Positions 4,930 through 38,212 of a stretch of DNA of 44,976 nt are shown here, one piece after another. A program made the position numbers and the translations under genes. The stretch is from positions 1 to 44,976 of IMG/VR virus record IMGVR_UViG_3300027895_000002. One strand, given 5' to 3'. The stretch comes from a virus. The notes below the pieces were generated by a model. It was not told the DNA's origin, did no database searches, and was given only the letters and a program-made list of their open reading frames with translations. The number at the start of each line of letters is the position of its first letter. Position 1 is the first letter of the stretch.

Positions 4930-6674
4930 TATTCCACAATGCAGTCCACCGTCCCTGTATAGGTTCCGGCGTTCCCAATCGTAAATCCTCCAGTCCCGGC
5001 ACTCGTGTAGTAAAAGGCCGCAGGAGGAGGAGTGCCACGAGCGGTCAGGGCGACCTGATAGGTGGTTCCTGCCAAGGTAGCACCATTCGGGAAACCCACT
5101 GTGGCGGTTGCCGTGCCTCCAGTAGGAGTCACCGGCTGAAAAGCCCCGGCCATGAGCTGGGCGAACTTCAACTTGGTAAAGAGTTGCACTCCGGTTCCAC
5201 CTACTGTCAAGCCACCGGCAAATAAAGCCCCACCCGCCCCGCCTTTGTTGAGGAAGAGCTGCCCGTTACCGCTGTAGGAGCCACCGGAGAAGTTACCCCC
5301 GCACCACGTACCCGCATTGGCATCGAAGATGTTCTGATTCTGAATGAGGGGCGAGAGCTGCCAGTAAGTTGCATTCGGGGGCATTTGATTGACGTTTGCC
5401 AGAATGCAGTAATACTGCAAGCCCTCCTTGACGAGTGCTCCACTGCCATAGGTACTCGCAGAGTTCCACGCGGCTCCCTGAGCGGCATAGGGTTGAAACT
5501 GTCCTACCGAGACGATGGGAGCATTGGTTCCGGTGGTCATGATTTCAGGTACCACCGCACCGGCATTAAAACTTACAATGAGATAGTCGATGCGGGTATT
5601 GGCGGCGTAGTAAATGGGAACCGCTCCGGATACGGGAGCCTCGATCTCTATGAACCCGACATGCCCCTCACCGATATTCACGCAGACCGTCGCCCCGTTA
5701 GCCGCAAAGCCCAGAGGGCCTGTGACCTCCAGTTGGTTGATCGCAATGCCAGAACCTAGAATGGAGACCCCATCGGTATTCAGGTCCTGAATGAACCCCA
5801 TCTCACCGATGTTGCACGTCATCGTCACCCCTTTGCAGCCGAAGTCCCTGAAGGTGATGTCGTCCATCCACGCTTCTGTCCCGTAGACCGTGGTGTCTCC
5901 TGCCAGATACCCGTAGGAATATGCAGTGGGAGTAGAGGCAGAGATGTTCCCATACATGCTCCATCCGGTGAGACGGATCTTCTGGGCGTTGGTCGCGTAA
6001 AATGCGATCCCTGTCGCTCCTGGTTTGCAGACAAGATTAGATTCCCACCTCCCCTGTCCGATCAACTGTCCCCCGGCAGGGCAGACGAGTTCCGAGACGA
6101 GATAGTTAAAAGGTCCTAAATAAGCAGGCTGTCCTACCAAAGACATCGCAGTATTGATCGGGATCGTCATATCGGTTCCGGTGGAACCGTTGATCGAGGC
6201 GTAAATGACACCCGAAGAGATGTAGCGCTCGGGATATCCCGGAGGGAAGGCGGTATTGGTCGGCGTAACGCTGTCGTTCTTTTCGACCTGAGTTTGGGGA
6301 TAAAGAATAGACCCCAAATACTGTGCGGTGAGAAGCTCGGTGAGGTCTGACGTCGTAATGATGCCCTGAGCGTAGGTTACGGCCGACTGGATACCGTTCA
6401 CCGTCCTGATGGCACTCGTCGGAGGATTGGTGTCGTTCGGAGGCGAGTAGACGAAAGTGTAGGTGAGTGCGGGGTCGAGCCATACCGTCGCAGACCCGTT
6501 GGAATCAAGCACAATGGGATTGGTGTTGAGCGTGTCCTGTGTGCTGTCGGTCCACGTAGATTGGGGAGTGGTGGTTCCCGAGATGAAGGTGAATAGCAGA
6601 AACCCCACAGCAGGCTGACCCGTGGCAGGGTTCAGAAACTGCAACTGCATCGTCGGGGAGATCGTCACACTCAT
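4926..6674 (-). CDS. Tailspike / tail fibre (receptor-binding protein)
   Basis: The N-terminus (QFLNPATGQP..G.LLFTF.SGTTTPQSTWTD...NPIVLDSNG) matches the common tail-fibre N-terminal domain pattern. Ser/Thr/Gly-rich beta-rich body. Its position after the ejection genes matches P22 gp9. Confidence 0.7.
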   Translation of the reverse strand: MSVTISPTMQLQFLNPATGQPAVGFLLFTFISGTTTPQSTWTDSTQDTLNTNPIVLDSNGSATVWLDPALTYTFVYSPPNDTNPPTSAIRTVNGIQSAVTYAQGIITTSDLTELLTAQYLGSILYPQTQVEKNDSVTPTNTAFPPGYPERYISSGVIYASINGSTGTDMTIPINTAMSLVGQPAYLGPFNYLVSELVCPAGGQLIGQGRWESNLVCKPGATGIAFYATNAQKIRLTGWSMYGNISASTPTAYSYGYLAGDTTVYGTEAWMDDITFRDFGCKGVTMTCNIGEMGFIQDLNTDGVSILGSGIAINQLEVTGPLGFAANGATVCVNIGEGHVGFIEIEAPVSGAVPIYYAANTRIDYLIVSFNAGAVVPEIMTTGTNAPIVSVGQFQPYAAQGAAWNSASTYGSGALVKEGLQYYCILANVNQMPPNATYWQLSPLIQNQNIFDANAGTWCGGNFSGGSYSGNGQLFLNKGGAGGALFAGGLTVGGTGVQLFTKLKFAQLMAGAFQPVTPTGGTATATVGFPNGATLAGTTYQVALTARGTPPPAAFYYTSAGTGGFTIGNAGTYTGTVDCIVEY

Positions 6675-7993
6675 GAGTAACTCACGTCTTTCGCGTAGCC
6701 GTGCTTCTGCAATTCCGGCAACTCGCTTTCAAGCTTTTCACCAATATCGTCCCGGTACATCATGTTCGGGATGTGGAGTTCCTTAACGGTTGAATAAGCC
6801 CTGTCGCAAGCCTGCCTTACGGTCTTGCCCATGCCTGTCACAACAGCAATATAGTCCCCTGTAGTCGTCCACAGATCCCGCTCCACTACCGCATCCCCGT
6901 CCATATCAGGCATTTTCTCGATCTTCACCGATTGCGGGGCAAGATACTTTTTGTTGGCTTCAGTCACGCCATAGATCGGAATGTCCGAAACCTCGGCTTT
7001 GGTCAGTTTGCTATTGGGATAGTCTGGTTGTGCAATCACTACCCCGCAAGCCACAGCAGGAGAGGTCTGCAAGGTGTCTTCCCCCTCGCAGGCATCAAGC
7101 ATCCACTGAACGGGATCGCCTTTGTGGGCGGCCTGCATGATATTGAAGGCAGGCCAGCCAAGACGGGTGGTGAACTCAAGCGGCCAAGCCTTGCCTTGCT
7201 TGTCCACAATACAGTTCACGTCAATATCCCCAAGGTGCTGCATCTCTACCAGAGCATCCTCCAGAGGATCTAACACTTCCTCGGCAAGCTTGGACTCCTC
7301 GGTGTATTTTAGAACCGTACCGGCTTCTCCACAGTTGGGTCCACAGTCTCCAGATAAGAGCTTCTTGAACTCCCAATTAATGTTAGGAGGTCCAATGAAC
7401 CCATCCGCTCCCATCCATCTGCTGACACCTAACTCTATGCCGTCAATTACCTCTTGGAGCATCACAGGTCCTTTAGAAGCCATGCCTAGTTTCTGCCACC
7501 TCTGTAAGCGTGCCACCATGTCGGCAGCGGACTTACTGACGTAAGAGAGTGATTTATCGTCCTCACTGCCGAGGGTCTTAAAGACATAACGGTCGGGCTT
7601 TGATCTGACGTGCTCTTCAGCTTCTTTGAGATTGGCGAACTCCTCCCATTCGGGTACGTCGATGCCGTGATCCGTGAAGAATTTCATTCCTACTGCACGC
7701 TCAACTTCCAGCTCTGCGGACTTCTTCGAGGGGCCGAATACCTTGACGCCCTGCTTTCTCAAAGCATCTAGCTTCGGCACGAATTGGTGATTGCCAGAAG
7801 GCACCACGAGGTCCGCCCACTTGACTGAGGAAAGCCAGTTCTCCACCCGCTCCACACCTTTGAAACCTTTTCCGGTCTCCTTGTGGTTCTCGGGAGCCAT
7901 CCAGATCCGTACCGTATGACCTGCTTTGACGCAGCGGATTGCGAAGGGGAGCATCTCGCCTACAGAATCCATTGAGAGTAGAAGCACCTTCAC
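6671..7993 (-). CDS. ATP-grasp enzyme, phosphoribosylamine-glycine ligase (PurD/GARS)-like
   Basis: Collinear with PurD over the full length. MKVLLL start; KVFGPSKKSAELEVERAVGMKFF (PurD: K.FGP...AA.LE.SK.F.K.F). GPNCGEAG in place of the NTGGMG loop; LEFTTRLGWPAF (PurD: IEFN.RFGDPE). C-terminal GDYIAVVTGMGKTV..A...AY......YRDDIG. Confidence 0.85.
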   Translation of the reverse strand: MKVLLLSMDSVGEMLPFAIRCVKAGHTVRIWMAPENHKETGKGFKGVERVENWLSSVKWADLVVPSGNHQFVPKLDALRKQGVKVFGPSKKSAELEVERAVGMKFFTDHGIDVPEWEEFANLKEAEEHVRSKPDRYVFKTLGSEDDKSLSYVSKSAADMVARLQRWQKLGMASKGPVMLQEVIDGIELGVSRWMGADGFIGPPNINWEFKKLLSGDCGPNCGEAGTVLKYTEESKLAEEVLDPLEDALVEMQHLGDIDVNCIVDKQGKAWPLEFTTRLGWPAFNIMQAAHKGDPVQWMLDACEGEDTLQTSPAVACGVVIAQPDYPNSKLTKAEVSDIPIYGVTEANKKYLAPQSVKIEKMPDMDGDAVVERDLWTTTGDYIAVVTGMGKTVRQACDRAYSTVKELHIPNMMYRDDIGEKLESELPELQKHGYAKDVSYS

Positions 7994-13827: not shown

Positions 13828-14831
13828 GGCTCGTAGGGACTTCCAGAGTCCCTTTGAAAGTAGAACGATGTGACTTCCGCATCCTGCTGCTGGGCGAAGG
13901 CCAAGGCTTCTGAGAGGTTCTCCTTCATTTCATCGGTCCACGAGGCATCGAACATTCCGCAGATCTCTCTGGAAAGTCCCCAGCACAAAGGCCGATACCA
14001 CTGCTGGGGGTAAGCAGGATTATCGACGGGGTTCGTGATATCGGAGATGGGATTCAGGTAGACGATATGTAAGAGCTTCGTGACGTCCTGTGCTCCACCC
14101 ACATCGATATAAAGCTGACCGTTTGAGGTCGCGGTAGAGGTGCCGATCTGGCTTTCGTAATATATCGCGGTAGGATCGGACTGGAAAGTGTTGCTGGTCT
14201 TTGTCGGTAAGAGTTCATAGTCCTCCAGCGTCATTTTGTTCATCGGGGTATCGTTGGCGAAAGTATCCCTCAGAATACAGGTCTCGATCTGCAAGGGTCT
14301 TTGCTGTTTCGTCGTGTAGTTAAAGACCTGTGCATTGGCGTTCGCATTACCCGTAAGAGGTGCATTCAAGCCCACTAACCCGTTGCTATAAGAGCTGACA
14401 GTCGTCCAGAAGAGATCTGTTCCTATGAGGATGCCGATGTAGTCATTCTGATTCATGACGGTAGGAGTGTTGACCGAGATATTGGTCGCCCCCTGACCGG
14501 CATTGGAGGCTAAAGTCGTTGAGTTATAGGTGAGGTTCGGAGGGTTTCCGGTAGTAAAGCCCGCCCAGTTATCTCCTGTGGGTCCCAGTTGATACTGATA
14601 CTGAGTGAAGCCCAAGAAGAGATCTCCCCGGGCTCGGCTCCACATTTTAAGCCCCGGGGCGAAATCCTGCTTTGCCATCCACGATTTGACGAGGAGATTA
14701 AGCTTCCTCAGACAGTCGTTGAATTCCTGTGCCGTGGGAATTTCCGCTTCTCCAATGGCTCCGATATTCAACATGGCTTCATTGATGATATCGGTGGCCG
14801 TGACCGTGAAGATATAAGTGCCGGTAATCAC
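13824..14831 (-). CDS. Head-to-tail adaptor (P22 gp4-like)
   Basis: The N-terminal helix pattern DIINEAMLNIGAIGEAEIPTAQEFNDCLRKLNLLVKSWMAKQ matches the gp4-type adaptor signature (I..AL..LG......P.........L..M...W). Synteny supports the call. Confidence 0.6.
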   Translation of the reverse strand: MITGTYIFTVTATDIINEAMLNIGAIGEAEIPTAQEFNDCLRKLNLLVKSWMAKQDFAPGLKMWSRARGDLFLGFTQYQYQLGPTGDNWAGFTTGNPPNLTYNSTTLASNAGQGATNISVNTPTVMNQNDYIGILIGTDLFWTTVSSYSNGLVGLNAPLTGNANANAQVFNYTTKQQRPLQIETCILRDTFANDTPMNKMTLEDYELLPTKTSNTFQSDPTAIYYESQIGTSTATSNGQLYIDVGGAQDVTKLLHIVYLNPISDITNPVDNPAYPQQWYRPLCWGLSREICGMFDASWTDEMKENLSEALAFAQQQDAEVTSFYFQRDSGSPYEP

Positions 14832-16405
14832 GCCCTCAGTTCCTTCTTCGTGGCGTCAGTGATTAAATTCCACACTGGACGGTAGATCTGATCGAAGCTG
14901 ATGTCCTGCTGGCACTGTGCGGTCGAGGTTTCTGCTTTCTGGCAGTGCGACCAGTTGTAGTGCATTTGATGGCAGGCGGGAGCTTCGTTCCTACCCCTTC
15001 CCGGACAGTGAGTGTTCTCGCTCCAGATCGGATATACGTTCGTCCAGTCACGCGTGAGGTTCTCGTGGGTCGAGTGGGAAAGTAATACGACTTTGGGATA
15101 ATCGAATTGGGATGCGGCATTCATCAAACCCGTTTCGGGTCCTATCGCCATATCAACCGTTGCCATGAAGGCAAGCGACTGTCGGATAGACCACTGACCA
15201 CAGGTTCGGTGGACACGTTTCTCCTTCTCCCAGCCTTGTTCAAGAATCTTGGCCGCCTCTCCTCCCAGTAACACGACATCGACGTTGGGGAAGTCGAGCA
15301 TCAGGGATGCGATGACGTTATCCAAACAGGCATGTGTTTTGTGGACCGAGGAACCCGCAAGCGGCCACGCCACCACGTACTCGCCCATCTTCGCCCGTTG
15401 TTTCTTCGCCCACGTCCTCTCATCCTCGGTGGGGAAAAAGCGGATCTGAGGCTTATGGGGTACTTCTGCAATGGCATGCTGCAATTCCAGATAGTTCATG
15501 TTCATGATCTTGTGGCGGATCGCAGGAGGCCAGTGGTGCTGTGTTCTCCCGGGTATGGCGAGGAGCGACCCCTCCACGCTTTCCGACAGGTTCACCCATT
15601 TGTCGTATTTCTTCCGATGATAATCCCAATACTCACCCAGAAGATGATTAGGGACTTGGTCCTTGTCCTGATAGTAAAAAGCGTCGATGTTCGGGTCGTT
15701 ACGCACGACTTCATCACCCGGAGGAGAGGTGTAAAGCGTGACGTGGTAACCTTGGGCTTTGAGGCCCGCGAACACCGACGAAGCCTGAAGGAGATCCCCG
15801 AATGCCCCGTAGCGGACTAACCCACAGGACTTCTTAGGAGGCTCCTTCTTCTTCCAACTCTCCGTCTGTCCGGAGTTCATCTTCCTGAATACGAAGTAGA
15901 GAGAGTATTCCCTCTCCTGATTCCGTTTCTGAAAGTCCACAAGATCCCAGCTACCTGCCCCTCTCATGTACTGGATCACCCGTTCATAGTTCACGTTCCA
16001 CTTGTGATCGGGATTTGCCCCTTCCTCTCCCACCTTCGGGTACTCGTCCTCATCCGGAAGGTAGAGCGTCAAATATCCTTTTGGCTTGATGATCCTCATC
16101 CAATCCCTTAAAGCTCCTGTGACTCTTTCGGGTGCAATGTGCTCCAGCAAGTGAGAGGAAAAACAGAAGTCCATCGAATTAGAAGCGAACATCTCCATGC
16201 GCTCGGCGCTCGGAACGCAGATATCGGGTTTTATGGGATGACCGAAAAGAGCTTCATCGGCCTTGTTATCGACCCCGATGAAATGGGGATAGAGCTTCTC
16301 GATGCCACAGCCGATATCAAGTCCTCTGCCCCTTGTGTATTGCACGATTTCCCACTTCACTTTCGCGGATTCGTTGCACTGGGGGTCGGTTATTTTCCAA
16401 GTCAT
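14828..16405 (-). CDS. Fusion protein: N-terminal class I SAM-dependent methyltransferase + C-terminal glycosyltransferase family 9 (heptosyltransferase-like)
   Basis: MT domain (aa 1-185, about 15851..16405): LDIGCGIEKL (motif I), GVDN, MDFCFSSHLLEH, IIKPKGYL. GT9 domain (aa 190-525, about 14828..15850): LVRYGAFGDLLQASSVFAGLKAQGYHVTLYT, NDPNIDAF, VVAWPLAGSSVHKTH, VVLLGG, SLAFMATVDMAIGPETGLMNAA, then a Cys/His-rich tail. ATGA overlap with the adaptor gene. Confidence 0.85.
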   Translation of the reverse strand: MTWKITDPQCNESAKVKWEIVQYTRGRGLDIGCGIEKLYPHFIGVDNKADEALFGHPIKPDICVPSAERMEMFASNSMDFCFSSHLLEHIAPERVTGALRDWMRIIKPKGYLTLYLPDEDEYPKVGEEGANPDHKWNVNYERVIQYMRGAGSWDLVDFQKRNQEREYSLYFVFRKMNSGQTESWKKKEPPKKSCGLVRYGAFGDLLQASSVFAGLKAQGYHVTLYTSPPGDEVVRNDPNIDAFYYQDKDQVPNHLLGEYWDYHRKKYDKWVNLSESVEGSLLAIPGRTQHHWPPAIRHKIMNMNYLELQHAIAEVPHKPQIRFFPTEDERTWAKKQRAKMGEYVVAWPLAGSSVHKTHACLDNVIASLMLDFPNVDVVLLGGEAAKILEQGWEKEKRVHRTCGQWSIRQSLAFMATVDMAIGPETGLMNAASQFDYPKVVLLSHSTHENLTRDWTNVYPIWSENTHCPGRGRNEAPACHQMHYNWSHCQKAETSTAQCQQDISFDQIYRPVWNLITDATKKELRA

Positions 16406-20009: not shown

Positions 20010-20456
20010 CTAGCTCAATACGGAAGCTAAATGCTGTAGTTCGTAGTCTACACTCACCACGACTTTTGCGGTCGCATCCGTCCCCAACTGCACGTAGAGT
20101 TCGGAGTACGCGGGGATCATGGCATTCGACAGGGAGAGCGCATCAGACCCTCCCGCCTGAGAGACAGTTCCCGCACCTCCCACGACATAAGGCCCGAAGG
20201 TCGTTGTGGTGAGAGCCACCGTGGTAGTCGTGCTCGTATTGCTTACGGCATAAAGACTCACGGTCTGCGCACTCGTCGTAGCACTGTAGGTCGAGGTGCC
20301 GATCGTATCCATGTAGGCGTTCAACGCCTTCAGGATGAAGTTGGCGTAGGTGACGTACTTGGAAACCGCTGCATTCCCGGACAGCATCCCGAAGTTGATC
20401 GAGTGCCGGATACGGTAGTTCTGGTCGTCGTACGTCGGGTAGGTTGAGTAAGGCAT
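20010..20456 (-). CDS. Thr/Ser-rich capsid accessory (decoration/cement) candidate, paralogue of 20457..21080
   Basis: Shares the YDD/YDNPTY start region and the IGTSTY core with its neighbour. Lies downstream of the major capsid gene. Confidence 0.5.
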   Translation of the reverse strand: MPYSTYPTYDDQNYRIRHSINFGMLSGNAAVSKYVTYANFILKALNAYMDTIGTSTYSATTSAQTVSLYAVSNTSTTTTVALTTTTFGPYVVGGAGTVSQAGGSDALSLSNAMIPAYSELYVQLGTDATAKVVVSVDYELQHLASVLS

Positions 20457-21080
20457 TTATGCCATTACCACGCCGTTCGGAGCCGCAACAGAATATTCGA
20501 TCACCGGAACCGTGGTGAAGGTCGCATCCGTCCCGCCGATGAAGGTGATGTAATCGCCGGGATTCATGTAAACCCCGCCCGAAGTCTGGCCGCCACCGGG
20601 CATTCCCAAGGAATAGGTGGCCGTCCCCCACGCCTGAGTCGTGTTCGTCCCTCCGAGAGTGTTAAAGCTGTAGCGCCAGTATCCACCTACTCCTCCGACC
20701 CCGGGGACGTTGACGTTGGTACCCGCAGCTCCCGTACCGCCGATGTAGAAGGGGCCTGTTGCGGCAGCTCCTAAGGTAGTGGTCGCCAGAGACACTGCCG
20801 TGCCAGTGGTATTGGTGTTCGCAACAAAGAGCGCGTAGTACGAACCACAGGAGGTCGTGGCGGTACCGTTCACCGTGTAGGTGGAGGTGCCAATCGCACC
20901 GACGTTAAAGGTCACACCACACAAAGTAAGCTGCGTCCACGCAAAGAACTTGCCAGTGGTCTGTGCAGACCCGGCAGAAGTCAAAGCCATTGCATAGGAC
21001 TGGCGGGTGAGATAGGTCGGATTGTCGTACCCCATCGAACGGGTGACGACGTTGGAATTACCTTGCTGCTGTGTAGCCAT
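20457..21080 (-). CDS. Thr/Gly-rich capsid accessory (decoration/cement) candidate
   Basis: 207 aa, beta-rich. GAIGTSTYTVNGTATT. Position immediately after the MCP gene. Confidence 0.5.
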   Translation of the reverse strand: MATQQQGNSNVVTRSMGYDNPTYLTRQSYAMALTSAGSAQTTGKFFAWTQLTLCGVTFNVGAIGTSTYTVNGTATTSCGSYYALFVANTNTTGTAVSLATTTLGAAATGPFYIGGTGAAGTNVNVPGVGGVGGYWRYSFNTLGGTNTTQAWGTATYSLGMPGGGQTSGGVYMNPGDYITFIGGTDATFTTVPVIEYSVAAPNGVVMA

Positions 21081-21140: not shown

Positions 21141-22112
21141 TTATGCCGCAGAGTCCCATTTGACGATGCGGACGTTTATCGCGAGAGTATGGACGATCCC
21201 AAACCCGCCAAGGTAATACCAGGCGATACCTTTCGACCGCCCATAGTCGGTCGGGAGCTTGCCCCGCATTTCCTCAGGGATTGCAATCGCCTCTGCAACG
21301 GTGTCGTTGCCGAAGAAGAAAATCCAGTCCGATAGACCGTTCACCCACGGCAGGGTCGTGATGCCGTCGGTTCCCAATCCTTTGGCAATGTTGGTCTGCT
21401 CGATGTACCGGGTGTTCTCGTACCGTCCGATCTCACCGTTCATGATGAGATTAAAGCCGGTGTCGGAATACTGGTGGATCGATTCCAGGGCGTTCTTGAA
21501 GGTCCGTAGGGTCGTCGGCCACGCAATCGAGTAGTAATCATCCGCGATGTACGCCGGGATGTTGCGCTCCTTCATGCTGTCCACAATCGCCTTGGCGTGG
21601 TTGTTGTTGTAGGCGATGGAGTTCGTGCCCGTCACCGTGCCATTGGTGTAGAGCGTCACGGCGGTCGCGGAAGTACCCCCGGTGGGAATGACTCTCAAGA
21701 GCGTCTGGTTGAACTGGCCCCATGCAAGACGGTCAACCGACTTCACCGTGTCATTCTTAAGAGCTTTCTTGATGATGTCCTCAACGGGGAACTTCGACAG
21801 ATTGTCGAGCTTCCCGGAGTACGGTACCGAGTTACCGGCTTCCGTAATCGTCAGGGTGCCCTGAGTGATCGTGAAATTAGTTTCAGGCAGGGTATTGGTT
21901 TCAAGTAGGACCCCACCTGCCGTAGCAACGTCTGAGATGACGTCCCACGTGAAGGTATCGCCCTTCTTCTTGCCCTGCTGAGAGATGTCGTGAACGTCAG
22001 AGAACTGGCGGAATTTCACCAGCGGCTGAACATTCATGCGTAAGACGTTAGAAAGCTGCCGGGAGTAAAAATATCCTCCAAGCGAGTTTACTGCCCACAC
22101 CTGACCGGCCAT
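21141..22112 (-). CDS. Major capsid protein (HK97 fold)
   Basis: Typical MCP N-terminal series: VWAVNSLGGYFYSRQLS...QPLVKFRQF......GKKKGDTFTWDV...TLPE...T.GTLTITEAGNSVPYSGKL. 323 aa. Follows the scaffold gene. Confidence 0.9.
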   Translation of the reverse strand: MAGQVWAVNSLGGYFYSRQLSNVLRMNVQPLVKFRQFSDVHDISQQGKKKGDTFTWDVISDVATAGGVLLETNTLPETNFTITQGTLTITEAGNSVPYSGKLDNLSKFPVEDIIKKALKNDTVKSVDRLAWGQFNQTLLRVIPTGGTSATAVTLYTNGTVTGTNSIAYNNNHAKAIVDSMKERNIPAYIADDYYSIAWPTTLRTFKNALESIHQYSDTGFNLIMNGEIGRYENTRYIEQTNIAKGLGTDGITTLPWVNGLSDWIFFFGNDTVAEAIAIPEEMRGKLPTDYGRSKGIAWYYLGGFGIVHTLAINVRIVKWDSAA

Positions 22113-28465: not shown

Positions 28466-31400
28466 GGGCTGTAGCCGATTTGCGTCACGGTCCCGTCCCA
28501 CGCACCCATGTTGCAGACGGTTCCTGTGGAAACTCCTCCCACCCGGCCCTTGCCTAAGAGCGGGGAGTTACTCGCCGGGACGAAGTTTGCAGGATTATTC
28601 CCCGCTCCTCCTACGAAGGAAGGCGGCCCGACAATCGAATGCGCATCCTTACCAGAAACCCCCTGCCAGGTTGCTAGAGTCGTGTATTGAGAGCCTACAG
28701 GATTGTTGTTCCAGGTGGAGTTAGCCGCCCAGCAGTTGTAATCCATTGTGCCGATGTTGGCGATTGCACAGGTAGAAGCTCCCAGTCCTCCCACAGATGC
28801 CGTGCTGATAAAGACGTTGTTCCAGAAACCTAAGGGAGCAGAAGACTGGTATTCGTTGATGACCCATCCCCCATTGATCGCTCCTGCCATGCTCACGGTG
28901 TTGTTGAAGCAGTTTACCGTAGAAGGTACGGCTTGATACGTCGTATTGGTCGGGTAGTACAGCGTCCCTAAATCCGCCTGCAACAAAGCCTTTACCTGAC
29001 TTCCAAGATCGATGATGTTGTGATGGATCTGATACGGTGTAAGAGCGGTGGAGGATGAGGGATGAGTCGCCTGTGCGTTCTCCCAACCCGTGAAAGGACC
29101 TCCGTCAGAGCCGTTCATCTGGTAGATGTAGTTATAACGAGCAATCGTGCCTTGGTTAGGTCCGTGGCCGTTCAGCTCGTACTTGTCGTAAATCGCCGTA
29201 TTGGCGTTGTAGAGCGTGCAGTATTCGATGACAGTGTTGATGTTCGAGTAGAGCTGAATGCAGGCGGCATTATGGGTGGCTTGAGCGTTCTGCATGCCGT
29301 GAATCAGGCAGTTGTGTACCAAAGCCCCATTGACGCATTCGAGCGAGATGCCGAGCACGTTGTCGCCCTCGGCCGCCGCCGTCCCGGTGATATTGGAGAT
29401 CTGGCAGTTCAGGATCTGCGGACCCGATCCCGCAACCGTATTGCCCGACATGTAGAAACTAATGGCCCCATACACCTGTCCTGTGGAGGAGGGATTGGAG
29501 ATGTTCTGCACTACAATTCCATCGAGCGTGCAGTAGCACACGTTCCCCGCCCCGTACTGGGTGTTCATGCCGATGATGGGATAGGGGGTGAGAGTTCCTC
29601 CTCCTGTGGGAGCACCATTTAAGACCGCTAGGCCGGGTGAATAGACCCCAGCAGAGTTACAGGATGCGATGTAGGTCGGATTACCCGCAGTGCCGGGAGG
29701 GATCTTGAGGAGCAATGCGGCAGTTCCGACCTGTCCACCGGATGAGAAGCCCGAAACGTCGTAATTGCCTCCTATGAGGCCCACACTCGCCCCTGCCATC
29801 AGGGCGAAGTTGGTCGCATTGCCTCCTGTTGTGGCAAGACTTGTGATTGCCCACGCCTGAGAGGGTGAGGTGCCGGAATTTGAATCATTCCCTGTCGATG
29901 AGATGAAATACTGAAACTCCACCTGACCGTAGACACTCGGCAATTGGGTGTTGAGCGGCATCGAGGGGATTGCGGCTGAGACCTGAGCGATACTGACACC
30001 TGATCCCGTGGTGTTGTCGAACCAGAACATCTTGTTGGGCTTGGTAGAACCGCCATTTGCAAGAGCGCCGTTAAAGGCGAAGTTGTAGTACTGCTGAGGG
30101 GTGTAGTTACCCCACTGTCCTGTCGCATCCGGATACTGCATTTCGTTAATGCAGGGGAGGACGTTCACATAGCTCGTGCCTCCGATGTTACCGTTATGCA
30201 CCATGTTGGACGTGAGCTGGGTCAAACCGGGAGAGTCATCCGGTCCTAACCCGCAACACGCATTCGCCTTCATTGCGGCGAATATGGCTTGCATCTGTGC
30301 ATTCGAGCCGAAGTAGTTCGGGGATATCCCTACCTCCGAGGCTTTGAACCCTCCCGTTCCCCTCACCTGGTTGAAGAAACTTACGATCTGATTGGCGTAG
30401 TTCTGATCGTTGATCCCTGAAGAGCCTGCTACGGCGGTTTCAGGACCTCTAATTCCCTCGAAGGTGAGATTGGCGTCGTACTGCGCGGCATAGGCATTGT
30501 GCATCGCAAGGATAATGGTGGTGTTGAAGCTCTGATCCACCTGCGCAATCATCGCGAGTTCCCCATCCCACTGTGTTCCGGAAGGTGCGTAGTTGAATCC
30601 CAGTCCTCCTCCATTGGCGGTGTTGTAGAGATCGGGAAGTACTCCGAAAGTCGCAGCCGTGGGAGTGCCGGAGAAGGTCTGTGCAACGAACTGCCGGTCC
30701 TCCCACCCCAACTCGAACTGTATCCCGGCGTTCTTACATGCAGTTAAGAACCAGTCCACGAGGTTAAAGCCACCCCCATTCGGACCTAATGTTCCGAATC
30801 GATACACGACATTGTTAAGGCTCGTGCCCTGCATCAACTGGCGAAGATTCACAATGATGAATACGCCAACGAACCCCATTGCTTTGGCGTTATTGATTCG
30901 GGAGAGCCAGTTCGCACCATTCGTACCGGAGTTGTTCTGATCCAGCTCGATCCAGTGGCCGGGAGTGAATTTATAAGCTCCTGTCGCCTGCTGGGCGGTG
31001 GTGAAGCTATAGGTGGTAGAGGCCGCAGAGATATTGAGGTCGGTGTCCTGAGCCGTTGCGGTGACGTTGTAATGAGTATTGGGAATGAGGTTGGAGAGCG
31101 TCAGAGTCCAGTTAGCCAGAGTCTGAATGTTCGTCTGGGTCAGCGTGGCGGTGATCGATACCCCGGCATTGGTGTTCCCTGTAAATCCTACATACAGGGC
31201 GTTGCCCATGTTCTGCGTCAGCGTGCCGACTGGTGTTGAGCCATTGAAGAATGTATAGCTGCTGCCGTTCTTGATGAGAATCAGCGTCGTGGGTCCGCTG
31301 TTCGCTACGGTTTGCAGAACCGTGGAGTTCCCCCCTGTACTGGGACGGTAGTAGCTCGAAACCCCTTTGCCACCTGAGAACGACGTGCACTGCATCCCGA

Positions 31401-33108
31401 CAAAAGCACTGTTGTTCGCCAAGGAGACACGTGCCTGGATACCTACATTTGAGTATGGATTGGCCGGATTGAAGCCCGATATCTGAAAAGTCAAGACACA
31501 ATAGGCGCTGTTGATCTGCTGGTAAGCAAAAGCGAGTGCATCGGTCAGCGGGTAACTGGGGTCTAAAGCGGTAGTCGTGATCGTGACAGAGGAGCCAGTC
31601 TGGGTGAAGACCGAGGTCTGAGTTCCTATATCTGCAAAGGTGAGCGTGGGCTTGTTACCAGCTGCGCTTGAGACGACCTGTGTACCTATCCCCGAGACCG
31701 TCACGTTGTACTGCTGCATCCCGCCCCAGAGGTATCCGGCAGGATTGGGGTCGGATGAAGGTAATCCTTGAACTAGTGCAGAAGTGGTGAGGATATTGGT
31801 TGCCGAGATGCCTACCGGGATCGTAGGAGGATAGGGGTCGGTAACTCCCGAGCCATTGCCGCGCACGCTGAACGTGTTGGAATTCGCCGAGAGACCGGAG
31901 GAGGTTAAGGTCGCGGTGAAGTAAAGCCCAGAAACCTCAGGAGCTACAGTGACCCCGTCATAAGTTAAGTACGTCCCATCGAATGCAAAACCAGTCGTTC
32001 CCGTCCACACACGCCACTGCTGCATCGACCAGCCGAGCGTTGCAATACCACCCGAGTCATTCCCATTGCCCGTGTAGGCGAGTTCCGCGTTGCCGTGTAC
32101 CGTCTGTAGCGTGTACTGCGTAGGGTCGGTCGAGATCGCAGGACCCACGGAGGCTGCGTTAATCGCTATTAGAGCGGCCTGGAACTGCGCCTGAGTCGTA
32201 ACCCACGAGAATGGCAGAAAGCCGCTCCACGGCGTTCCTGTCGAGAGGGTGCTGTGAGGCAGGGGTGTGACATAAAGCCCTGCACCCGTTCCCGATCCTC
32301 CTAGAGGGCAGTTGATCTGATAGGTTCCGCTCGGACTGTCGTAGCTGATTCCTACAGGCTGATTGGTCTCTCCCACCCCGGGGAAGATCTTGACCCCAAG
32401 GCTTACGAAAATCCCTCCGGGGCCTGCAAAGCGCGCATCCGCCAGCCAATATGCCAAACCGCCCATAGAGGCCGTTGCTACGGGAATCTGCAAGAGCATT
32501 GACTGGTAGAACGAGGAACCAGAAAAAACTGAAGGTAAAACTCCTCCCAAGCTGTAGTTAGGAAAGCCGCTGTACTTGCCATCGGGAGAGGTGCCAAGTT
32601 CCGCCGAACTCATGTAACCGCCCACAACCGGGCCTTCCATCTGAAAGCCGCTAGAGTTTGCGGTAGATTGTAGGCAAAGCTGCGCGGTAGCCGGATTGAT
32701 TGCGGTGTATCCGGTCAGTGCCCCCATGCTGTTCAAGTTAGAAACCAGGGTGCCGCTCGGACTGTTGTACGGGTTGGGCTCCCACTGCAGCAGCACTAAC
32801 TTACCCGTCGGGATGCTCTGCGAAGGGGTAGCCAGGGGCACGATCATGTTTCCCGCTATTCCGGTCTCTACCGGCTGCGAGAAGATGCTGGATTGGACTT
32901 TCCCCGTGGGGTCGTTAAGAACGCACGTACAACCCGTTGTGGGGGTGATATAGGTCGTGAGAATGTCAACCGACAGGGAACCTGTCTGATTGATGAAATT
33001 CGGTACGCTCGTCCACTGCGGCTGTGGGGGAGTACCACCAGGATAGCCCCAGTATCCAATGCCGTTACCAGCAGGCGTGACAGGCCAGAAATCAGTAGCG
33101 AGTGTCAA
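28462..33108 (-). CDS. Giant (1548 aa) multi-domain depolymerase-like protein: unknown N-terminal region, lectin/jelly-roll-like region, FN3-like module, TIM-barrel glycosidase-like region, right-handed beta-helix (pectin-lyase fold) C-terminal domain
   Basis: FN3-like LSNLIPNTHYNVTATAQDTDLNISAASTTYSFTT (about 30990..31150). Alternating beta/alpha region with ELGWEDR and EGIRGPE (about 29930..30985). PbH1-type repeats NCQISNITG...LVHNCLIHGM...IEYCTLYN (about 28700..29925) ending SGKDAHSIVGPPSFVGG...PASNSPLLGKG. Confidence 0.7.
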   Translation of the reverse strand: MTLATDFWPVTPAGNGIGYWGYPGGTPPQPQWTSVPNFINQTGSLSVDILTTYITPTTGCTCVLNDPTGKVQSSIFSQPVETGIAGNMIVPLATPSQSIPTGKLVLLQWEPNPYNSPSGTLVSNLNSMGALTGYTAINPATAQLCLQSTANSSGFQMEGPVVGGYMSSAELGTSPDGKYSGFPNYSLGGVLPSVFSGSSFYQSMLLQIPVATASMGGLAYWLADARFAGPGGIFVSLGVKIFPGVGETNQPVGISYDSPSGTYQINCPLGGSGTGAGLYVTPLPHSTLSTGTPWSGFLPFSWVTTQAQFQAALIAINAASVGPAISTDPTQYTLQTVHGNAELAYTGNGNDSGGIATLGWSMQQWRVWTGTTGFAFDGTYLTYDGVTVAPEVSGLYFTATLTSSGLSANSNTFSVRGNGSGVTDPYPPTIPVGISATNILTTSALVQGLPSSDPNPAGYLWGGMQQYNVTVSGIGTQVVSSAAGNKPTLTFADIGTQTSVFTQTGSSVTITTTALDPSYPLTDALAFAYQQINSAYCVLTFQISGFNPANPYSNVGIQARVSLANNSAFVGMQCTSFSGGKGVSSYYRPSTGGNSTVLQTVANSGPTTLILIKNGSSYTFFNGSTPVGTLTQNMGNALYVGFTGNTNAGVSITATLTQTNIQTLANWTLTLSNLIPNTHYNVTATAQDTDLNISAASTTYSFTTAQQATGAYKFTPGHWIELDQNNSGTNGANWLSRINNAKAMGFVGVFIIVNLRQLMQGTSLNNVVYRFGTLGPNGGGFNLVDWFLTACKNAGIQFELGWEDRQFVAQTFSGTPTAATFGVLPDLYNTANGGGLGFNYAPSGTQWDGELAMIAQVDQSFNTTIILAMHNAYAAQYDANLTFEGIRGPETAVAGSSGINDQNYANQIVSFFNQVRGTGGFKASEVGISPNYFGSNAQMQAIFAAMKANACCGLGPDDSPGLTQLTSNMVHNGNIGGTSYVNVLPCINEMQYPDATGQWGNYTPQQYYNFAFNGALANGGSTKPNKMFWFDNTTGSGVSIAQVSAAIPSMPLNTQLPSVYGQVEFQYFISSTGNDSNSGTSPSQAWAITSLATTGGNATNFALMAGASVGLIGGNYDVSGFSSGGQVGTAALLLKIPPGTAGNPTYIASCNSAGVYSPGLAVLNGAPTGGGTLTPYPIIGMNTQYGAGNVCYCTLDGIVVQNISNPSSTGQVYGAISFYMSGNTVAGSGPQILNCQISNITGTAAAEGDNVLGISLECVNGALVHNCLIHGMQNAQATHNAACIQLYSNINTVIEYCTLYNANTAIYDKYELNGHGPNQGTIARYNYIYQMNGSDGGPFTGWENAQATHPSSSTALTPYQIHHNIIDLGSQVKALLQADLGTLYYPTNTTYQAVPSTVNCFNNTVSMAGAINGGWVINEYQSSAPLGFWNNVFISTASVGGLGASTCAIANIGTMDYNCWAANSTWNNNPVGSQYTTLATWQGVSGKDAHSIVGPPSFVGGAGNNPANFVPASNSPLLGKGRVGGVSTGTVCNMGAWDGTVTQIGYSP

Positions 33109-34950: not shown

Positions 34951-34961
34951 GAGTCCATCCG

Positions 34962-35213: not shown

Positions 35214-35221
35214 GATTCCCG

Positions 35222-35626
35222 CTATGGGCTAACGCCCTCATGGCTTTGGGTTTCATTCGCCTTGAGTGTAGCCGTGGTGCTAAAGCCAGGCAAGCGCCCG
35301 ATGATCTCCAATCCTCCTGCCCACTTGTAGCCGTTGAACTCCTGATCCTGTCCCCTGAAGAGGACGTCAGGCTTTATCGAGCGGATGAGATCTGCTACCC
35401 GGCCATCAAAAGGGATGCACGAGTCTGCAAACGTGTTCACCCTCATCATTCGATCAGAGAGCCCTTCAGAGGGTCTACCCACCCCTTTGAGGCGAAGCAC
35501 TGACGCATCTGTGTTAACCGCGACGATGAGCCAGTCACACCTCTTCCTTGCTTCTCTGAGGAAGTATCGGTGGCCGTCGTGGAATGCGTCGAAGCATCCG
35601 TTTGCAAAGCCAATGCGCATAACCAT
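35222..35626 (-). CDS. hldC: D-glycero-beta-D-manno-heptose 1-phosphate adenylyltransferase (RfaE/HldE domain II type cytidylyltransferase fold)
   Basis: RIGFANGCFDAFHDGHRYFLREARKRCDWLIVAVNTDASVLRLKGVGRP aligns with E. coli HldE domain II [45 protein letters not shown]. Confidence 0.9.
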   Translation of the reverse strand: MVMRIGFANGCFDAFHDGHRYFLREARKRCDWLIVAVNTDASVLRLKGVGRPSEGLSDRMMRVNTFADSCIPFDGRVADLIRSIKPDVLFRGQDQEFNGYKWAGGLEIIGRLPGFSTTATLKANETQSHEGVSP

Positions 35627-35651
35627 AACAATTCCTCTTTCGAAATTCTCA

Positions 35652-35801
35652 TCAGTACGGTTCTCCCCAATACGGACGGTTCACCGCCATCCATACTATG
35701 CCGCCCACCACCAAAGCCACAACACCAGCAACAACCAACACGACCTTGGGCAAAGATGAAATCGCCAAAGCCGCCATAACCCAAACAGCAATTAGAATCA
35801 T
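35652..35801 (-). CDS. 49-aa 2-TM membrane micro-protein between hldA and hldC (below the ORF-track cutoff)
   Basis: My own translation: MILIAVWVMAALAISSLPKVVLVVAGVVALVVGGIVWMAVNRPYWGEPY. Its ATG overlaps the hldA TGA (ATGA) and is preceded by GGAGG. Confidence 0.55.
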   Translation of the reverse strand: MILIAVWVMAALAISSLPKVVLVVAGVVALVVGGIVWMAVNRPYWGEPY

Positions 35802-36586
35802 AATGCCTCCAGAAGCTCATTCTTTGAACATGTAGCTGTTCCTGTCTTTCGGACCACAACACCAGCAGCATGGTTCGCAAGACGCGCGGCCTCTTCAATC
35901 CTCATGCCGCCGCATCCCAATACCGCCGCAACCACGGCAACCACCGTATCTCCCGCTCCGGTCACATCGAATACCTCTCGTGCAACAGCGGGGTAATTAA
36001 CCTTGGCATTCTCCTTCCAGAGAGTGATCCCCTCAGGTCCCCTCTTTTCCATGATTACCGGAAACTCCTTCCGTGCGGAGACTACCCCGGACAATTCCTT
36101 TGCGTTTGGGCAAATAACCATTGCCCCTCGATACTTATCCCAATGAGTTCCCTTGGGATCGACAACTACCAAGCGCCGGTATTTCCTCGCTGCAGAACAC
36201 ATCTCCGGCGTCAGCATCCCCTTGGCGTAGTCCGAAAAAACAATCACATCGCTTTGCGATTCACGCGCTGCTTGCAGCTGTTCTTCCGTAGGACTCGCAA
36301 GGATATCTTTATCTACCCTGAATAACTGCTGATGCCCCACCATGTAGCGATGCTTGGTGGATATCTCCTTGGCGAAGATCGTGTCTACCTGACAGCCTAA
36401 TGCCTCTAAATTAGCCGCGACATTCGCAGCACCACCCGGACGGGCTTTCTGTGAATCCTCTATGAATATCGGCACCGGAGCTTCAGGACTCAATCGGTCC
36501 ACATGGCCGAAATGGTACAGATCCCTTAATGCGTCACCAATGACGAGTACCCGCACGTTTTTGAACTTTTCGATTAGGTCTCGCAT
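35798..36586 (-). CDS. hldA: D-glycero-beta-D-manno-heptose 7-phosphate kinase (RfaE/HldE domain I, PfkB-type sugar kinase)
   Basis: VLVIGDALRDLYHFGHVDRLSPEAPVPIF....ARPGGAANVAANLEALG, FSDYAKG, VVVDPKG..W.KYRGA, DVTGAGDTVVAVVAAVL and ANHAAGVVVRKTGTAT are all collinear with E. coli HldE domain I. It is shorter than the E. coli domain (262 aa). Confidence 0.9.
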   Translation of the reverse strand: MRDLIEKFKNVRVLVIGDALRDLYHFGHVDRLSPEAPVPIFIEDSQKARPGGAANVAANLEALGCQVDTIFAKEISTKHRYMVGHQQLFRVDKDILASPTEEQLQAARESQSDVIVFSDYAKGMLTPEMCSAARKYRRLVVVDPKGTHWDKYRGAMVICPNAKELSGVVSARKEFPVIMEKRGPEGITLWKENAKVNYPAVAREVFDVTGAGDTVVAVVAAVLGCGGMRIEEAARLANHAAGVVVRKTGTATCSKNELLEAL

Positions 36587-36754: not shown

Positions 36755-36755
36755 G

Positions 36756-37079
36756 TCAAGCCTCTGATGGGATCAGCCTCACACAATCTTCAGGATCATC
36801 GTGGCTTGACGCTTCAACCACTGTACCGGGCACCAAACATCTCAATCTGTGGCATCGGCCAGAAGGAATAATAGCATGTGAACCGGCTTTCAGCTCCAGT
36901 GTTTTACCCTGCATTTCAAGCATAAAGTGACCGCTTGAGACGTAGAAGCACTCGTGTTTGAGTTCGTGGAAATGCAGGCTTGAGGCGATAGGTTTCTCGT
37001 AGACCAGAAGCTTCATGCAGTAACTTTTGTTGTGGATCAAGAGCTCGTGCCCCCAAGATTTGTCTACTCGCTCAACCAC
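36756..37079 (-). CDS. Cupin-fold protein, phosphosugar (mannose-6-phosphate type) isomerase-like
   Basis: KSWGHELLI..KSYCMKLLVYEKPIASSLHFHELKHECFYVSSGHFMLEMQGKTLELKAGSHAIIPSGRCHRL fits the cupin pattern WG.E......Y..K.L......S.H.H..K.E...V..G..........L..G....IP....H. GTG start. Confidence 0.65.
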   Translation of the reverse strand: MVERVDKSWGHELLIHNKSYCMKLLVYEKPIASSLHFHELKHECFYVSSGHFMLEMQGKTLELKAGSHAIIPSGRCHRLRCLVPGTVVEASSHDDPEDCVRLIPSEA

Positions 37080-38212
37080 GCCTTAAGTTCCTTGACGTGC
37101 TTTGACCATGTGCGCTCTCTTCTCAAGAATTGCGTATCAGAGTTTTCAAAGTTGCCGTATGGGTCGGCGTACCTTAAAGCTCGCACGTAGCGATGCACAT
37201 GCTCCAGAATTTCATCAATTTCATCCGGATCGGACTCATACCATTCCAAGCTCGTATCTGGGAAAAAGTACTCGCTCGATGCTGGGATAGGGGTCTGTCT
37301 GGTCAAACAGTGTCCTAACTGGGCCAAATCCTTCATCCCTGTGTGATAGCCGTAAATAACAGGCACCCCACAGGCCATAGCCTCCATCACCGGCAGGCTC
37401 TGACAGCTCTCACACCTCGAAGGGGCTAACATGACGTCCATCTCCCTCAAGATAGGAGGTAAGCAGTAATTCGGCACCACCCCCAGATCAATGACTTTAG
37501 CGGGGTCTATGCCGTTATCGTCTGCCCATCTCGAAATGTCTAATCCCTTCTCGTTAAGCCACAGGGGAGCGTCTGTGAGCCCTTTAAACCCGTTAGCCAT
37601 GTCCGCATGAGGGCTCTGCCATAGGGTCACCAGACGCGCCTCCGGGTGCTTTTGGACGAAGCGCTTGAATGCAAGCAAAACCACATCTTGGGCCTTGCGG
37701 TACTCGACTTTCCCAGCAGAGTAGATGTAGAAAGCCTCCGGCAAAGCTCCTGACTTAGATCCGGGACAGAATAGGTTCGGGTCAATGCCCTCATGAATAA
37801 CTTTGACCTCTCGCCCTGTGGCATTTTCGAGTATCTCCTTGTTCCACGATGAACCTGTTAACAAGTGGGTGTAGCGGGAGAGTTTATCAATGGCATCCCG
37901 GGTGTCTGGTTTCTCCACGATCACCCTTCCGACAAGAGTTTTAGGGCCTTCCTTCGAGCCCTGAAGGTCATTCCCCACAGGATCTATCCACACACAGTCG
38001 TCCGTGTACTCGTACTTCCTGGAAATGGCTTTGAGGACACTCCTGTAATGCAAGGCATCCATCCCCATGAAATGACCGTGTTCCAAGGGATATGGGGTGT
38101 GAACCTCATAGTCGGGATCATTGGCTAGTTGGGCAATGAGATTGCTTCCCACCACCCCCCAGCCTCCATAGGCGTGGACGCCCCAGTTAAGGATTAGTTG
38201 TTTCTTAGCCAC
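37064..38212 (-). CDS. GT-B fold glycosyltransferase (family 1/4-like)
   Basis: C-terminal signature MLAPSRCESCQSLPVMEAMACGVPVIYG (E..........EAMA.G.PVI). 382 aa. Confidence 0.75.
   Translation of the reverse strand: MAKKQLILNWGVHAYGGWGVVGSNLIAQLANDPDYEVHTPYPLEHGHFMGMDALHYRSVLKAISRKYEYTDDCVWIDPVGNDLQGSKEGPKTLVGRVIVEKPDTRDAIDKLSRYTHLLTGSSWNKEILENATGREVKVIHEGIDPNLFCPGSKSGALPEAFYIYSAGKVEYRKAQDVVLLAFKRFVQKHPEARLVTLWQSPHADMANGFKGLTDAPLWLNEKGLDISRWADDNGIDPAKVIDLGVVPNYCLPPILREMDVMLAPSRCESCQSLPVMEAMACGVPVIYGYHTGMKDLAQLGHCLTRQTPIPASSEYFFPDTSLEWYESDPDEIDEILEHVHRYVRALRYADPYGNFENSDTQFLRRERTWSKHVKELKAWLSE

Follow-up and report, generated by a model that had tools for sequence, protein, structure and literature searches.

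A methyltransferase-GT9-like fusion in the head module of an uncultured podophage family and an optional heptose cassette: a candidate pathway for methyl-heptose glycosylation

Introduction

Two described groups of GT9-type enzymes are relevant to the phage genes treated here: the lipopolysaccharide (LPS) heptosyltransferases WaaC, WaaF and WaaQ, and the bacterial autotransporter heptosyltransferases (BAHTs) TibC and AAH (PDB 4rap/4rb4). TibC uses the cysteines of an iron finger to dimerise and to recognise its protein substrate (PMC4358343). We analysed the IMG/VR virus record IMGVR_UViG_3300027895_000002, a stretch of 44,976 nucleotides called the window throughout, which encodes a fusion of an S-adenosylmethionine (SAM) methyltransferase (MT) with a GT9-like glycosyltransferase (GT) domain in its head-gene block and a cassette of heptose-type genes upstream of the large terminase gene (TerL). 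Like the BAHTs, the GT9-like domain has a GT-B core with the G-x-x-G-D-L-L motif (catalytic Asp, TibC D110) and Lys-x-Trp; it is expected in the cytoplasm, where a folded Ser/Thr-rich protein could be its substrate, and it carries a Cys4 insertion in the C-lobe that can be aligned, though weakly, with that of TibC. Unlike the BAHTs, it has the methyltransferase or nothing in place of the N-terminal beta-barrel, is not matched by the NCBIfam BAHT model, has head and adaptor genes instead of an autotransporter substrate gene as neighbours and is overall nearer to WaaF in sequence. With WaaC, WaaF and WaaQ, its best sequence-level relatives (weak matches to TIGR02193/02195/02201), it shares the fold, the motif positions and ADP-heptose as the expected donor. 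In contrast to these enzymes, it has the Cys4 insertion, the fused methyltransferase and a non-basic N-lobe, its scores lie far below the cut-offs, and its gene belongs to a head module and not to an LPS core cluster.

Among phages, the Cluster O mycobacteriophages carry an O-methyltransferase and glycosyltransferases (Corndog gp35-gp38) within the head-gene block, whose products are made in infected cells but are not part of the virion; methylation and glycosylation of the capsid were proposed as their role (PMC4351075). The MT and GT genes of the window are likewise embedded in the head-gene block, whereas the mycobacteriophage glycosyltransferase families and sugars differ, include no GT9 and no heptose pathway, and belong to a siphovirus of an actinobacterial host. 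Mycobacteriophage virion glycans have reportedly been proven experimentally.

The cassette has its own parallels. T4-like cyanophages encode the same short HldA-type kinase, HldC-type adenylyltransferase and small cupin near tail fibre genes; unlike the window, they add a mini-HAD phosphatase and a sugar epimerase and have no GT9/MT gene, the function of their cassette being predicted. Compared with the bacterial ADP-heptose pathway (GmhA-HldA(HldE)-GmhB-HldC-HldD), the HldA and HldC of the window keep the catalytic motifs and related loci add a SIS (GmhA-like) gene, but the window lacks GmhA, GmhB and HldD, a cupin sits in the isomerase slot and the scores stay below the equivalog cut-offs. 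Phage rfaE-type genes were reported earlier as auxiliary metabolic genes (PMC7029224), and GT9-like proteins are already annotated in uncultured phage proteomes. In the "contig 53" cluster, a sugar kinase, a nucleotidyltransferase and a BshA/MshA-like GT-B enzyme install heptose on 5-hydroxymethylcytosine (5hmC) (bioRxiv 10.1101/2023.12.21.572611). All three enzyme types occur in the window; in contrast to "contig 53", which needs a cytosine methyltransferase and a TET-like dioxygenase and has a HAD/APH-type kinase, neither of these two enzymes was detected in the window and its kinase is of the PfkB type.

An earlier note on this DNA, made by a model from the letters alone and called here the original prediction, had proposed a phage-encoded (methyl-)heptose toolkit of six enzymes and knew of no comparable system. 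The latter needs correction, as the kinase/adenylyltransferase/cupin cassette is annotated in T4-like cyanophages and an MT together with GT genes in the Cluster O head module (PMC4351075). Our literature searches brought up no work on a heptosyltransferase gene within the head module of a phage. To our knowledge, attachment of heptose to virion proteins has not been shown for phages of Gram-negative bacteria. Here we describe the fusion as a core gene of a podophage family which, together with the optional cassette, probably serves to attach a methylated heptose, the target being most likely a virion protein.

Results

A GT9-like domain with intact motifs and a Cys4 insertion

The fusion gene (14828..16405, minus strand) encodes an N-terminal class I SAM methyltransferase domain (approximately residues 1-180; 15866..16405, minus strand), which is supported by Methyltransf_11 (E 1.5e-7) as well as by profile and fold matches in the PDB, followed by a GT-B domain (approximately residues 185-525; 14828..15853, minus strand) with a weak Pfam GT9 match. 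Judged by sequence alone, the GT domain cannot be placed and its membership in GT9 is remote: a PDB profile search with the domain gave a marginal match to 3tov in the N-terminal part, precomputed PF01075 matches were present for 5 of 120 fusion homologues among the matches listed, and the NCBIfam models of heptosyltransferases I/II/III were weakly matched in 10 of 24 family members (best E 1.9e-5, far below the cut-off). By its predicted fold, the GT half clearly belongs to GT9. The AlphaFold (AF2) model of the fusion, based on 47 homologues, has a pLDDT of 90.5, and Foldseek with the GT half returned 3tov (2e-14) and WaaF 1psw (3e-12), then WaaC and TibC, as the best PDB matches. The modelled N-terminal half is nearest in fold to class I SAM methyltransferases.

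Using a profile of 24 diverse GT domains, hhalign gave a full-length alignment of 297 columns with E. coli WaaF (E 1.2e-4), in support of the placement in GT9, and no informative alignment with WaaC. In the WaaF alignment, the segments RYGAFGD, GSSVHKxW and GPETG fall on the G-D, K-x-W-P and D-S-G motifs of GT9, and all three are invariant or nearly so in the 24 members, with Glu in place of Asp in the third motif. This conservation argues for catalysis. A check of GT9, HldA and HldC for lost catalytic residues found the GT9 motifs, GAGD, HxGH and GFSTT all present.

An insertion with four cysteines (C467, C478, C488 and C498 in the window fusion) lies near the C-terminus of the GT domain. Within the family, it follows the pattern C-x2-C-x9/10-C-x8-17-C or a long-loop variant and has no counterpart in WaaC and WaaF, whereas it is in register with the iron-finger cysteines C339, C342, C358 and C370 of TibC in an hhalign alignment of the C-lobe (E 0.021). 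The N-lobe of the family is not basic (median net charge -1, pI 6.6), in contrast to WaaC and WaaF (+5, pI 9.2-9.5), while TibC has a charge of 0; the comparison with these three reference proteins is a weak indicator that points away from a lipid A-type acceptor.

The MT/GT9 pair as a core part of the head module

The fusion has 2628 homologues, more than 120 of them full length at 59-79% identity and many on contigs of 38-47 kb. In Paraburkholderia sp. C35, P. rhynchosiae WSM 3937 and Aromatoleum anaerobium LuFRes1 (loci L102, L103 and L111), full-length homologues are part of large contigs, and metagenome-assembled genomes (MAGs) assigned to Polaromonas, Janthinobacterium, Rhodocyclaceae and Accumulibacter contain them as well. 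This identifies the hosts as Gram-negative Betaproteobacteria, with lysogens available in culture; the window comes from a large uncultured podophage family, some members of which are prophages of Betaproteobacteria. Among deposited phages, DNA and protein searches gave no match to the operon or to the fusion, and PHROG holds no family for the fusion or for the PurD-like protein described below. A head-to-PurD-like block with a fusion of 60% identity is also found in a 942-kb contig (L096; CAVVLX010000006.1) labelled as a Thermoplasmata archaeon MAG. This label conflicts with betaproteobacterial hosts, and mis-binning, a chimeric contig or a wrong label are possible.

The minus-strand block of the window is a podovirus-type morphogenesis module with TerL, portal, major head protein, a P22 gp10-like Hc3 and an ejection protein. 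Across the family, the conserved order is portal, scaffold, major head protein, small proteins, a variable insert, MT/GT9, an adaptor-like gene, Hc3, the ejection block, the PurD-like gene and a fibre gene, and in the window the fusion gene overlaps the adaptor-like gene by 4 bp. In loci anchored on the GT and extending far enough, a head protein homologue lies upstream in 40/42, while the adaptor-like gene and Hc3 lie downstream in 57/70 and 48/59, respectively. An independent sample anchored on the head protein (at least 4 kb of sequence) has MT and GT downstream in 36 of 38 loci, and the two exceptions end within long inserted fibre genes. Since the pair still follows the head protein in distant loci with different tail genes, we regard MT/GT9 as a core gene of the head module. 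The fusion, like the PurD-like gene, had been taken for a foreign insert into the late operon; both are instead fixed components of the structural module of this phage family. The major head protein (21141..22112, minus strand; phrog_1357) is the gene most tightly linked to MT/GT9. Its sequence is 82-94% identical in contigs (L004, L006, L101, L085; related loci carry L numbers) whose portal, TerL and tail proteins are at 30-78%, and 54% identical to head proteins of Vibrio phages without a GT9 gene.

MT and GT occur fused, as adjacent split genes, in swapped order, as GT|MT|GT or, in a distant clade, as GT alone; in some relatives, a small open reading frame (ORF) or a homing endonuclease separates them. 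The recurrence of the fused, split-adjacent, swapped and GT|MT|GT arrangements indicates that MT and GT form a functional pair. Mobile elements have entered these genes: a GIY-YIG/NUMOD3 homing endonuclease splits the two in L101 (5031-5582), and a conserved ORF of 88 aa stands between them in 13 loci (L045-L056). Further sugar-type enzymes gather around the pair, namely a TylF-type O-methyltransferase in seven loci from the clustering of accessory genes and in L202 and L205, and, repeatedly, a second Methyltransf_11 protein and a GT2. In L243, a methyltransferase with PF08421 and PF08484, which we take to be the architecture of NDP-sugar C-methyltransferases, lies beside GT9. The idea that the heptose is methylated gains from these neighbours and from the MT being fused or adjacent to GT9 in nearly all relatives.

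A recurrent heptose cassette upstream of TerL

All six enzyme ORFs of the original prediction were found on the minus strand with exactly matching coordinates, and profile searches confirmed their earlier domain calls. They form three units of different conservation instead of one spliced-in system: the core MT::GT9-like fusion, an accessory set GT4-cupin-HldA-HldC and the separate PurD-like gene. The start/stop overlaps said to join all of them hold for the fusion, the PurD-like gene, the cupin and GT4 (4 to 19 bp), but not for HldA and HldC, which are flanked by spacers of 169-171 bp.

Within the cassette, the HldA-type PfkB kinase (35798..36586, minus strand) matches TIGR02198/rfaE_dom_I (E 6.5e-72) and the Burkholderia HldA 4e84 (E 7e-51) and keeps GAGD (DVTGAGDTV). 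Its TIGR02198 score of 242 bits stays below the equivalog cut-off of 345 and it has a deletion of about 35 aa, which is common to phrog_8133 and the cyanophage kinases; thus, we consider it a stable short form and not a pseudogene. The HldC-type heptose-1-phosphate adenylyltransferase (35222..35626, minus strand; TIGR02199/rfaE_dom_II, E 2.8e-24; phrog_7878) also matches the B. pseudomallei cytidylyltransferase 5x9q and has the FHDGH (HxGH) and GFSTT motifs; its TIGR02199 score is 85.6 bits against a cut-off of 181.5, and its nucleotide specificity is a prediction. The small metal-binding cupin (36756..37079, minus strand; Cupin_2, E 1.3e-9; phrog_7851) has intact HxH..E and G..P.G..H motifs, and its matches to mannose-6-phosphate isomerases are weak and below the cut-off. 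The GT-B glycosyltransferase of family GT4 (37064..38212, minus strand; Glyco_trans_1_4, E 3.9e-11) overlaps the cupin gene by 16 bp and exceeds the Pfam thresholds (Glyco_trans_1_4, 43.8 bits vs 27; Glycos_transf_1, 37.8 vs 26.4); BshA and MshA are among its best NCBIfam matches and no close relative was found among deposited sequences. An ORF of 105 aa without a family match (38194..38511, minus strand) travels with the GT4 cassette, as a 44% identical homologue stands between GT4 and cupin in L242. Among the window ORFs scanned, there was no GmhA (SIS) or GmhB (HAD), and tblastn with the SIS protein of a relative was empty.

The spacers of about 170 bp were considered as repeats or RNA elements and rejected: they are not repeats, have no Rfam or tRNA match, and their promoter and terminator counts equal the shuffle expectation. 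The spacer 35627-35797 (minus strand) contains a small ORF of about 41 codons for a hydrophobic, membrane-like peptide (MAALAISSLPKVVLVVAGVVALVVGGIVWMAVNRPYWGEPY).

At the site upstream of TerL, the cassette recurs in at least 13 related loci; an initial view of it as rare (3 loci) was dropped after searches with divergent HldC and cupin queries. L242 repeats the GT4-cupin-HldA-HldC set of the window, and the closest relative, L086, has GT4 alone at the same site. Cassette and MT-GT9 are found on one contig in three cases (the window, L205/L233 and L036/L236), and in L243/L245 a Thr/Ser-rich protein, MT, the C-methyltransferase, GT9, a small HNH-like ORF (L243 4474-4890, between GT9 and HldA), HldA, cupin and HldC are contiguous. 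The adjacency in L243 is the strongest evidence that GT9 uses the product of the cassette and that the methylation concerns the sugar. Together with the recurrent co-occurrence, it makes ADP-heptose a fairly likely donor of the GT9 domain, and the predicted link between heptose-nucleotide genes and GT9/MT is borne out by the recurrence upstream of TerL, the same-contig cases and this cluster. Two further cassette ORFs, of 253 aa in L233 and 363 aa in L236, were discarded as sugar enzymes, having only weak ankyrin-like and ParB-like matches.

The cupin as a proposed substitute for GmhA

Six loci (L081, L082 and L236-L239) have SIS (GmhA fold)-HldA-HldC cassettes and seven (the window, L233, L235, L240, L242, L243 and L244) cupin-HldA-HldC cassettes, whereas L234 has neither SIS nor cupin and no locus has both (Fisher p 0.005, not corrected for phylogeny). 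The cyanophages provide a second line of evidence. S-CAM1 (SXBG_00217-00220), S-CAM3, S-T4, S-SSM7 and P-TIM68 have annotated genes for the kinase, the adenylyltransferase and the cupin (PHROGs 8133/7878/7851) beside those for tail fibres, and the proteins are 31-38% identical to their counterparts in the window. SXBG_00218 of S-CAM1 (L157 7719-8042) is deposited as "phosphoheptose isomerase", which would place an SIS enzyme beside a cupin. However, it comprises 108 aa, starts with DxDGT and matches the HAD fold of 1xpj (E 1.5e-6); it is probably a mini-HAD phosphatase and not an SIS isomerase, in which case the deposited label is wrong and the apparent coexistence of cupin and SIS is ruled out. 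The cupin next to it is deposited as "cysteine dioxygenase". Hence, the cyanophage cassette consists of kinase, adenylyltransferase, mini-HAD phosphatase, cupin and epimerase, and an SIS gene is absent.

The alternation of SIS and cupin and the cyanophage cassette with a cupin and without an SIS gene support an isomerase role of the cupin, as had been guessed in the original prediction. We propose that it acts as a sedoheptulose-7-phosphate isomerase replacing GmhA.

The PurD-like gene tracks the ejection block

The PurD-like ATP-grasp protein (6671..7993, minus strand) matches TIGR00877 below the cut-off (E 1.2e-33; 116.6 bits vs 288). Its ATP-grasp and C domains are about 25% identical to PurD structures, and roughly its first 75 residues do not align. 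Four hallmarks of PurD, namely the GGREH and GxGKG loops, the Asn of ExN and GDPE, are lost in at least 90% of the phage homologues; among the window protein and 15 homologues, the PurD scaffold is kept while ExN is changed to ExT and GDPE to GWPA in at least 90% of members. This pattern renders the ligase activity uncertain, and the protein may have become a pseudoenzyme taken up by the virion module or may ligate new substrates.

Its assignment to the toolkit could not be upheld. The complete genome MW202796.1 has the PurD-like gene at the same slot but no MT/GT9 gene, and conversely, GT9 loci with other tail modules (L100, L108, L110, L111 and L115) have no PurD-like gene. The gene tracks the ejection-protein block and not the glycosylation genes, and we place it outside the glycosylation unit.

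Candidate acceptors and the variable slot

Two small Thr/Ser/Gly-rich proteins are encoded directly after the major head protein gene (20010..21080, minus strand; Ser/Thr/Asn 31%) and are candidate glycan acceptors. Nearly all relatives have comparable small proteins after the major head protein, and in L243 a similar protein of 256 aa lies directly upstream of the MT gene. The neighbours of the fusion had been described as unusually rich in Ser, Thr and Asn. They are indeed enriched (25-31% vs a window mean of 20%), but only moderately and to a degree that is usual for surface proteins, for which reason we set this richness aside as evidence for glycosylation.

Two small adjacent and paralogue-like ORFs in 19340-20001 of the window (o19750 and o19340) share an NYLPPG-VIE-Q motif and have homologues in 37-51 related loci; the NYLPPG motif was rejected as a marker of a conserved acceptor, because it is not kept in relatives. 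The variable slot before the fusion (16415-17722 and 17970-19151) encodes proteins of the receptor-binding type. One is a fibre with a K1-lyase_C intramolecular chaperone domain, and another consists of 31% Gly (Gly_rich_2), such proteins recurring there in about ten relatives. In L004 (8435-9691), a fibre with a GDSL esterase domain occupies the slot.

Further features of the genome

Bases 1-127 and 44850-44976 of the window are identical, and owing to this 127-bp terminal overlap we consider it a complete circular assembly, with a genome of about 44.85 kb. A DNA polymerase, primase, helicase or integrase was not recognised in this complete genome, unlike its relative MW202796.1 with a full replication module. 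The early region (1-2400 and 39400-44976, plus strand; about 8 kb) has small ORFs without a Pfam function. Between TerL and portal (26115-33108, minus strand), there is an ORF of 1548 aa, without PDB, Pfam or PHROG match and without tandem repeats, together with two Ser/Thr-rich unknown ORFs and a protein with He_PIG and PASTA domains. As TerL almost directly precedes portal in relatives, this stretch is an insertion of about 7 kb and a second variable cargo site; the matching site of L081 is occupied by two ORFs of about 550 aa.

Discussion

A proposed two-part pathway with a virion protein as the most likely acceptor

The explanation we favour, tentatively and at slightly less than even weight, is a two-part pathway for methyl-heptose glycosylation whose acceptor is most likely a virion protein of the phage. 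The donor would be supplied by the accessory cassette upstream of TerL. Here, the cupin (or SIS in other members) would isomerise sedoheptulose-7-phosphate in the place of GmhA, HldA would phosphorylate C1, and GmhB of the host, which is needed because the phage has no phosphatase, would take off the 7-phosphate. HldC would then complete the ADP-heptose. Family members without the cassette, which are the majority, would draw on the ADP-heptose of the host. Transfer of the heptose would fall to the GT9-like domain of the fusion, whose gene is core to the family, and methylation of the sugar or the product to the fused SAM methyltransferase, while GT4 would probably add a second sugar and, with other accessory enzymes, extend or tailor the glycan. 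As acceptor, we consider a virion protein from the same head-gene block most likely, modified in the cytoplasm before or during assembly, by analogy with the heptosylation of autotransporters by TibC and AAH or with the glycosylation of mycobacteriophage capsids by phage enzymes. In favour of this choice, the most conjectural step of the pathway, we count that the gene is tied to the head module and overlaps the adaptor-like gene by 4 bp, and that the enzyme has a TibC-like Cys4 insertion and an N-lobe that is not basic. The more specific proposal that betaproteobacterial podophages O-heptosylate and methylate their own virion surface proteins by a TibC-like GT9/MT, with the cupin replacing GmhA in some of them, is possible but rather doubtful in our opinion.

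Several points weigh against the two-part pathway. The PF01075 match of the fusion reaches 18.8 bits where the cut-off is 22 (E 1e-3), the NCBIfam autotransporter-heptosyltransferase model matches neither the fusion nor the 24 GT domains, and the scores of hidden Markov models (HMMs) place the GT domain nearer to the LPS heptosyltransferases. The alignment with TibC is weak and restricted to the C-lobe, the N-terminal beta-barrel of TibC is absent (a methyltransferase domain stands there in the fusions, nothing in the split versions), the likeness of the Cys4 insertion could be convergent and the charge of the N-lobe was compared with only three proteins. For the cupin, PDB searches returned generic cupins and no specific similarity to a characterised isomerase, which keeps its role at the level of a proposal. 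The cassette is not specific to GT9, since cyanophages carry it without a GT9 gene, and in an unbiased small sample only about 1 in 9 of the family members whose sequence upstream of TerL was readable had it, which is why we view it as an optional supply line with host ADP-heptose as the alternative source. Late expression of the operon is deduced from gene order only.

Alternative explanations

The strongest alternative is that GT9/MT, with or without the cassette and GT4, remodels the host envelope, i.e. the inner or outer core of LPS or another glycoconjugate, and leaves the virion unmodified; this could serve lysogenic conversion, superinfection exclusion or keeping progeny off debris. The best sequence-level relatives of the GT domain are, after all, the LPS heptosyltransferases WaaF, WaaC and RfaQ, the hosts are Gram-negative Betaproteobacteria, heptose is a constituent of Burkholderia-type LPS cores and members of the family exist as prophages. 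Moreover, where phage rfaE and glycosyltransferase genes have been interpreted in print, LPS modification is the favoured function (PMC7029224). The position of the gene speaks against such a role, as it lies between head and adaptor genes with a 4-bp overlap and is kept there in about 95% of the family members. Known conversion genes, by contrast, are located at the prophage periphery. Expression late, just before lysis, would also leave little time for new LPS to reach the surface, and the N-lobe has no WaaC/WaaF-like basic character while the Cys4 insertion is absent from both enzymes. On balance, we consider envelope remodelling unlikely, although it deserves to be taken seriously.

It is quite improbable that the two units are unrelated, the cassette being a general auxiliary metabolic module that raises the supply of a host precursor and the GT9-like/MT protein using another donor or acceptor or having a non-catalytic role in assembly. 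Such a separation would fit the cyanomyoviruses, which have the cassette without a GT9 gene, the majority of family members, with GT9/MT and no cassette, and the remote GT9 membership. However, cassette and GT9/MT are directly adjacent in L243, the cassette recurs in exactly this phage family and the GT9 catalytic motifs are invariant in 24 diverse members.

ATP-grasp amidoligases act on capsular sugars in Campylobacter, and the PurD-like protein might by the same token amidate or aminoacylate the sugar within the pathway. Its gene runs in the same direction as the others of the operon, shares 4 bp with each of its neighbours and lies downstream in 18 of the 30 GT9 loci reaching far enough. 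This role is nevertheless very improbable, as the gene follows the ejection-protein block and not GT9, being present without MT/GT9 in MW202796.1 and absent from the five GT9 loci with other tail modules. Finally, the kinase/nucleotidyltransferase/GT4 cassette could glycosylate phage DNA, for instance as heptosyl-5hmC against restriction, in line with the component types of "contig 53" (bioRxiv 10.1101/2023.12.21.572611) and the BshA and MshA matches of GT4, but this is the least credible alternative, because searches of the complete genome detected neither a cytosine C5-methyltransferase nor a TET-like dioxygenase, an hmC/hmU synthase or a replication enzyme, so that it shows no route to 5hmC, and the cassette abuts terminase and, in L243, GT9/MT instead of DNA-metabolism genes.

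Significance

Returning to the two-part pathway, what is possibly new is heptose/GT9 chemistry as a core function of the head module and a cupin as a substitute for GmhA. If true, this would be the first case of virion heptosylation, phages of Gram-negative bacteria would have their first virion glycosylation system, and the cupin would represent a new class of sedoheptulose-7-phosphate isomerase. The alternation of SIS and cupin suggests that an enzyme for the first step of heptose biosynthesis has gone unrecognised and that a mis-annotation in cyanophage genomes is likely. Since ADP-heptose is an agonist of innate immunity in animals, phage genes that raise its level merit attention for that reason alone. 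With related prophages present in cultured Paraburkholderia and Aromatoleum strains, these questions are directly testable. Should the acceptor be a virion protein, phage-directed glycosylation would extend beyond the mycobacteriophages, with a methylated heptose and a GT9 enzyme, and such a modification of the virion would bear on how stable the phages are, how they bind receptors and how host defences or antibodies recognise them.

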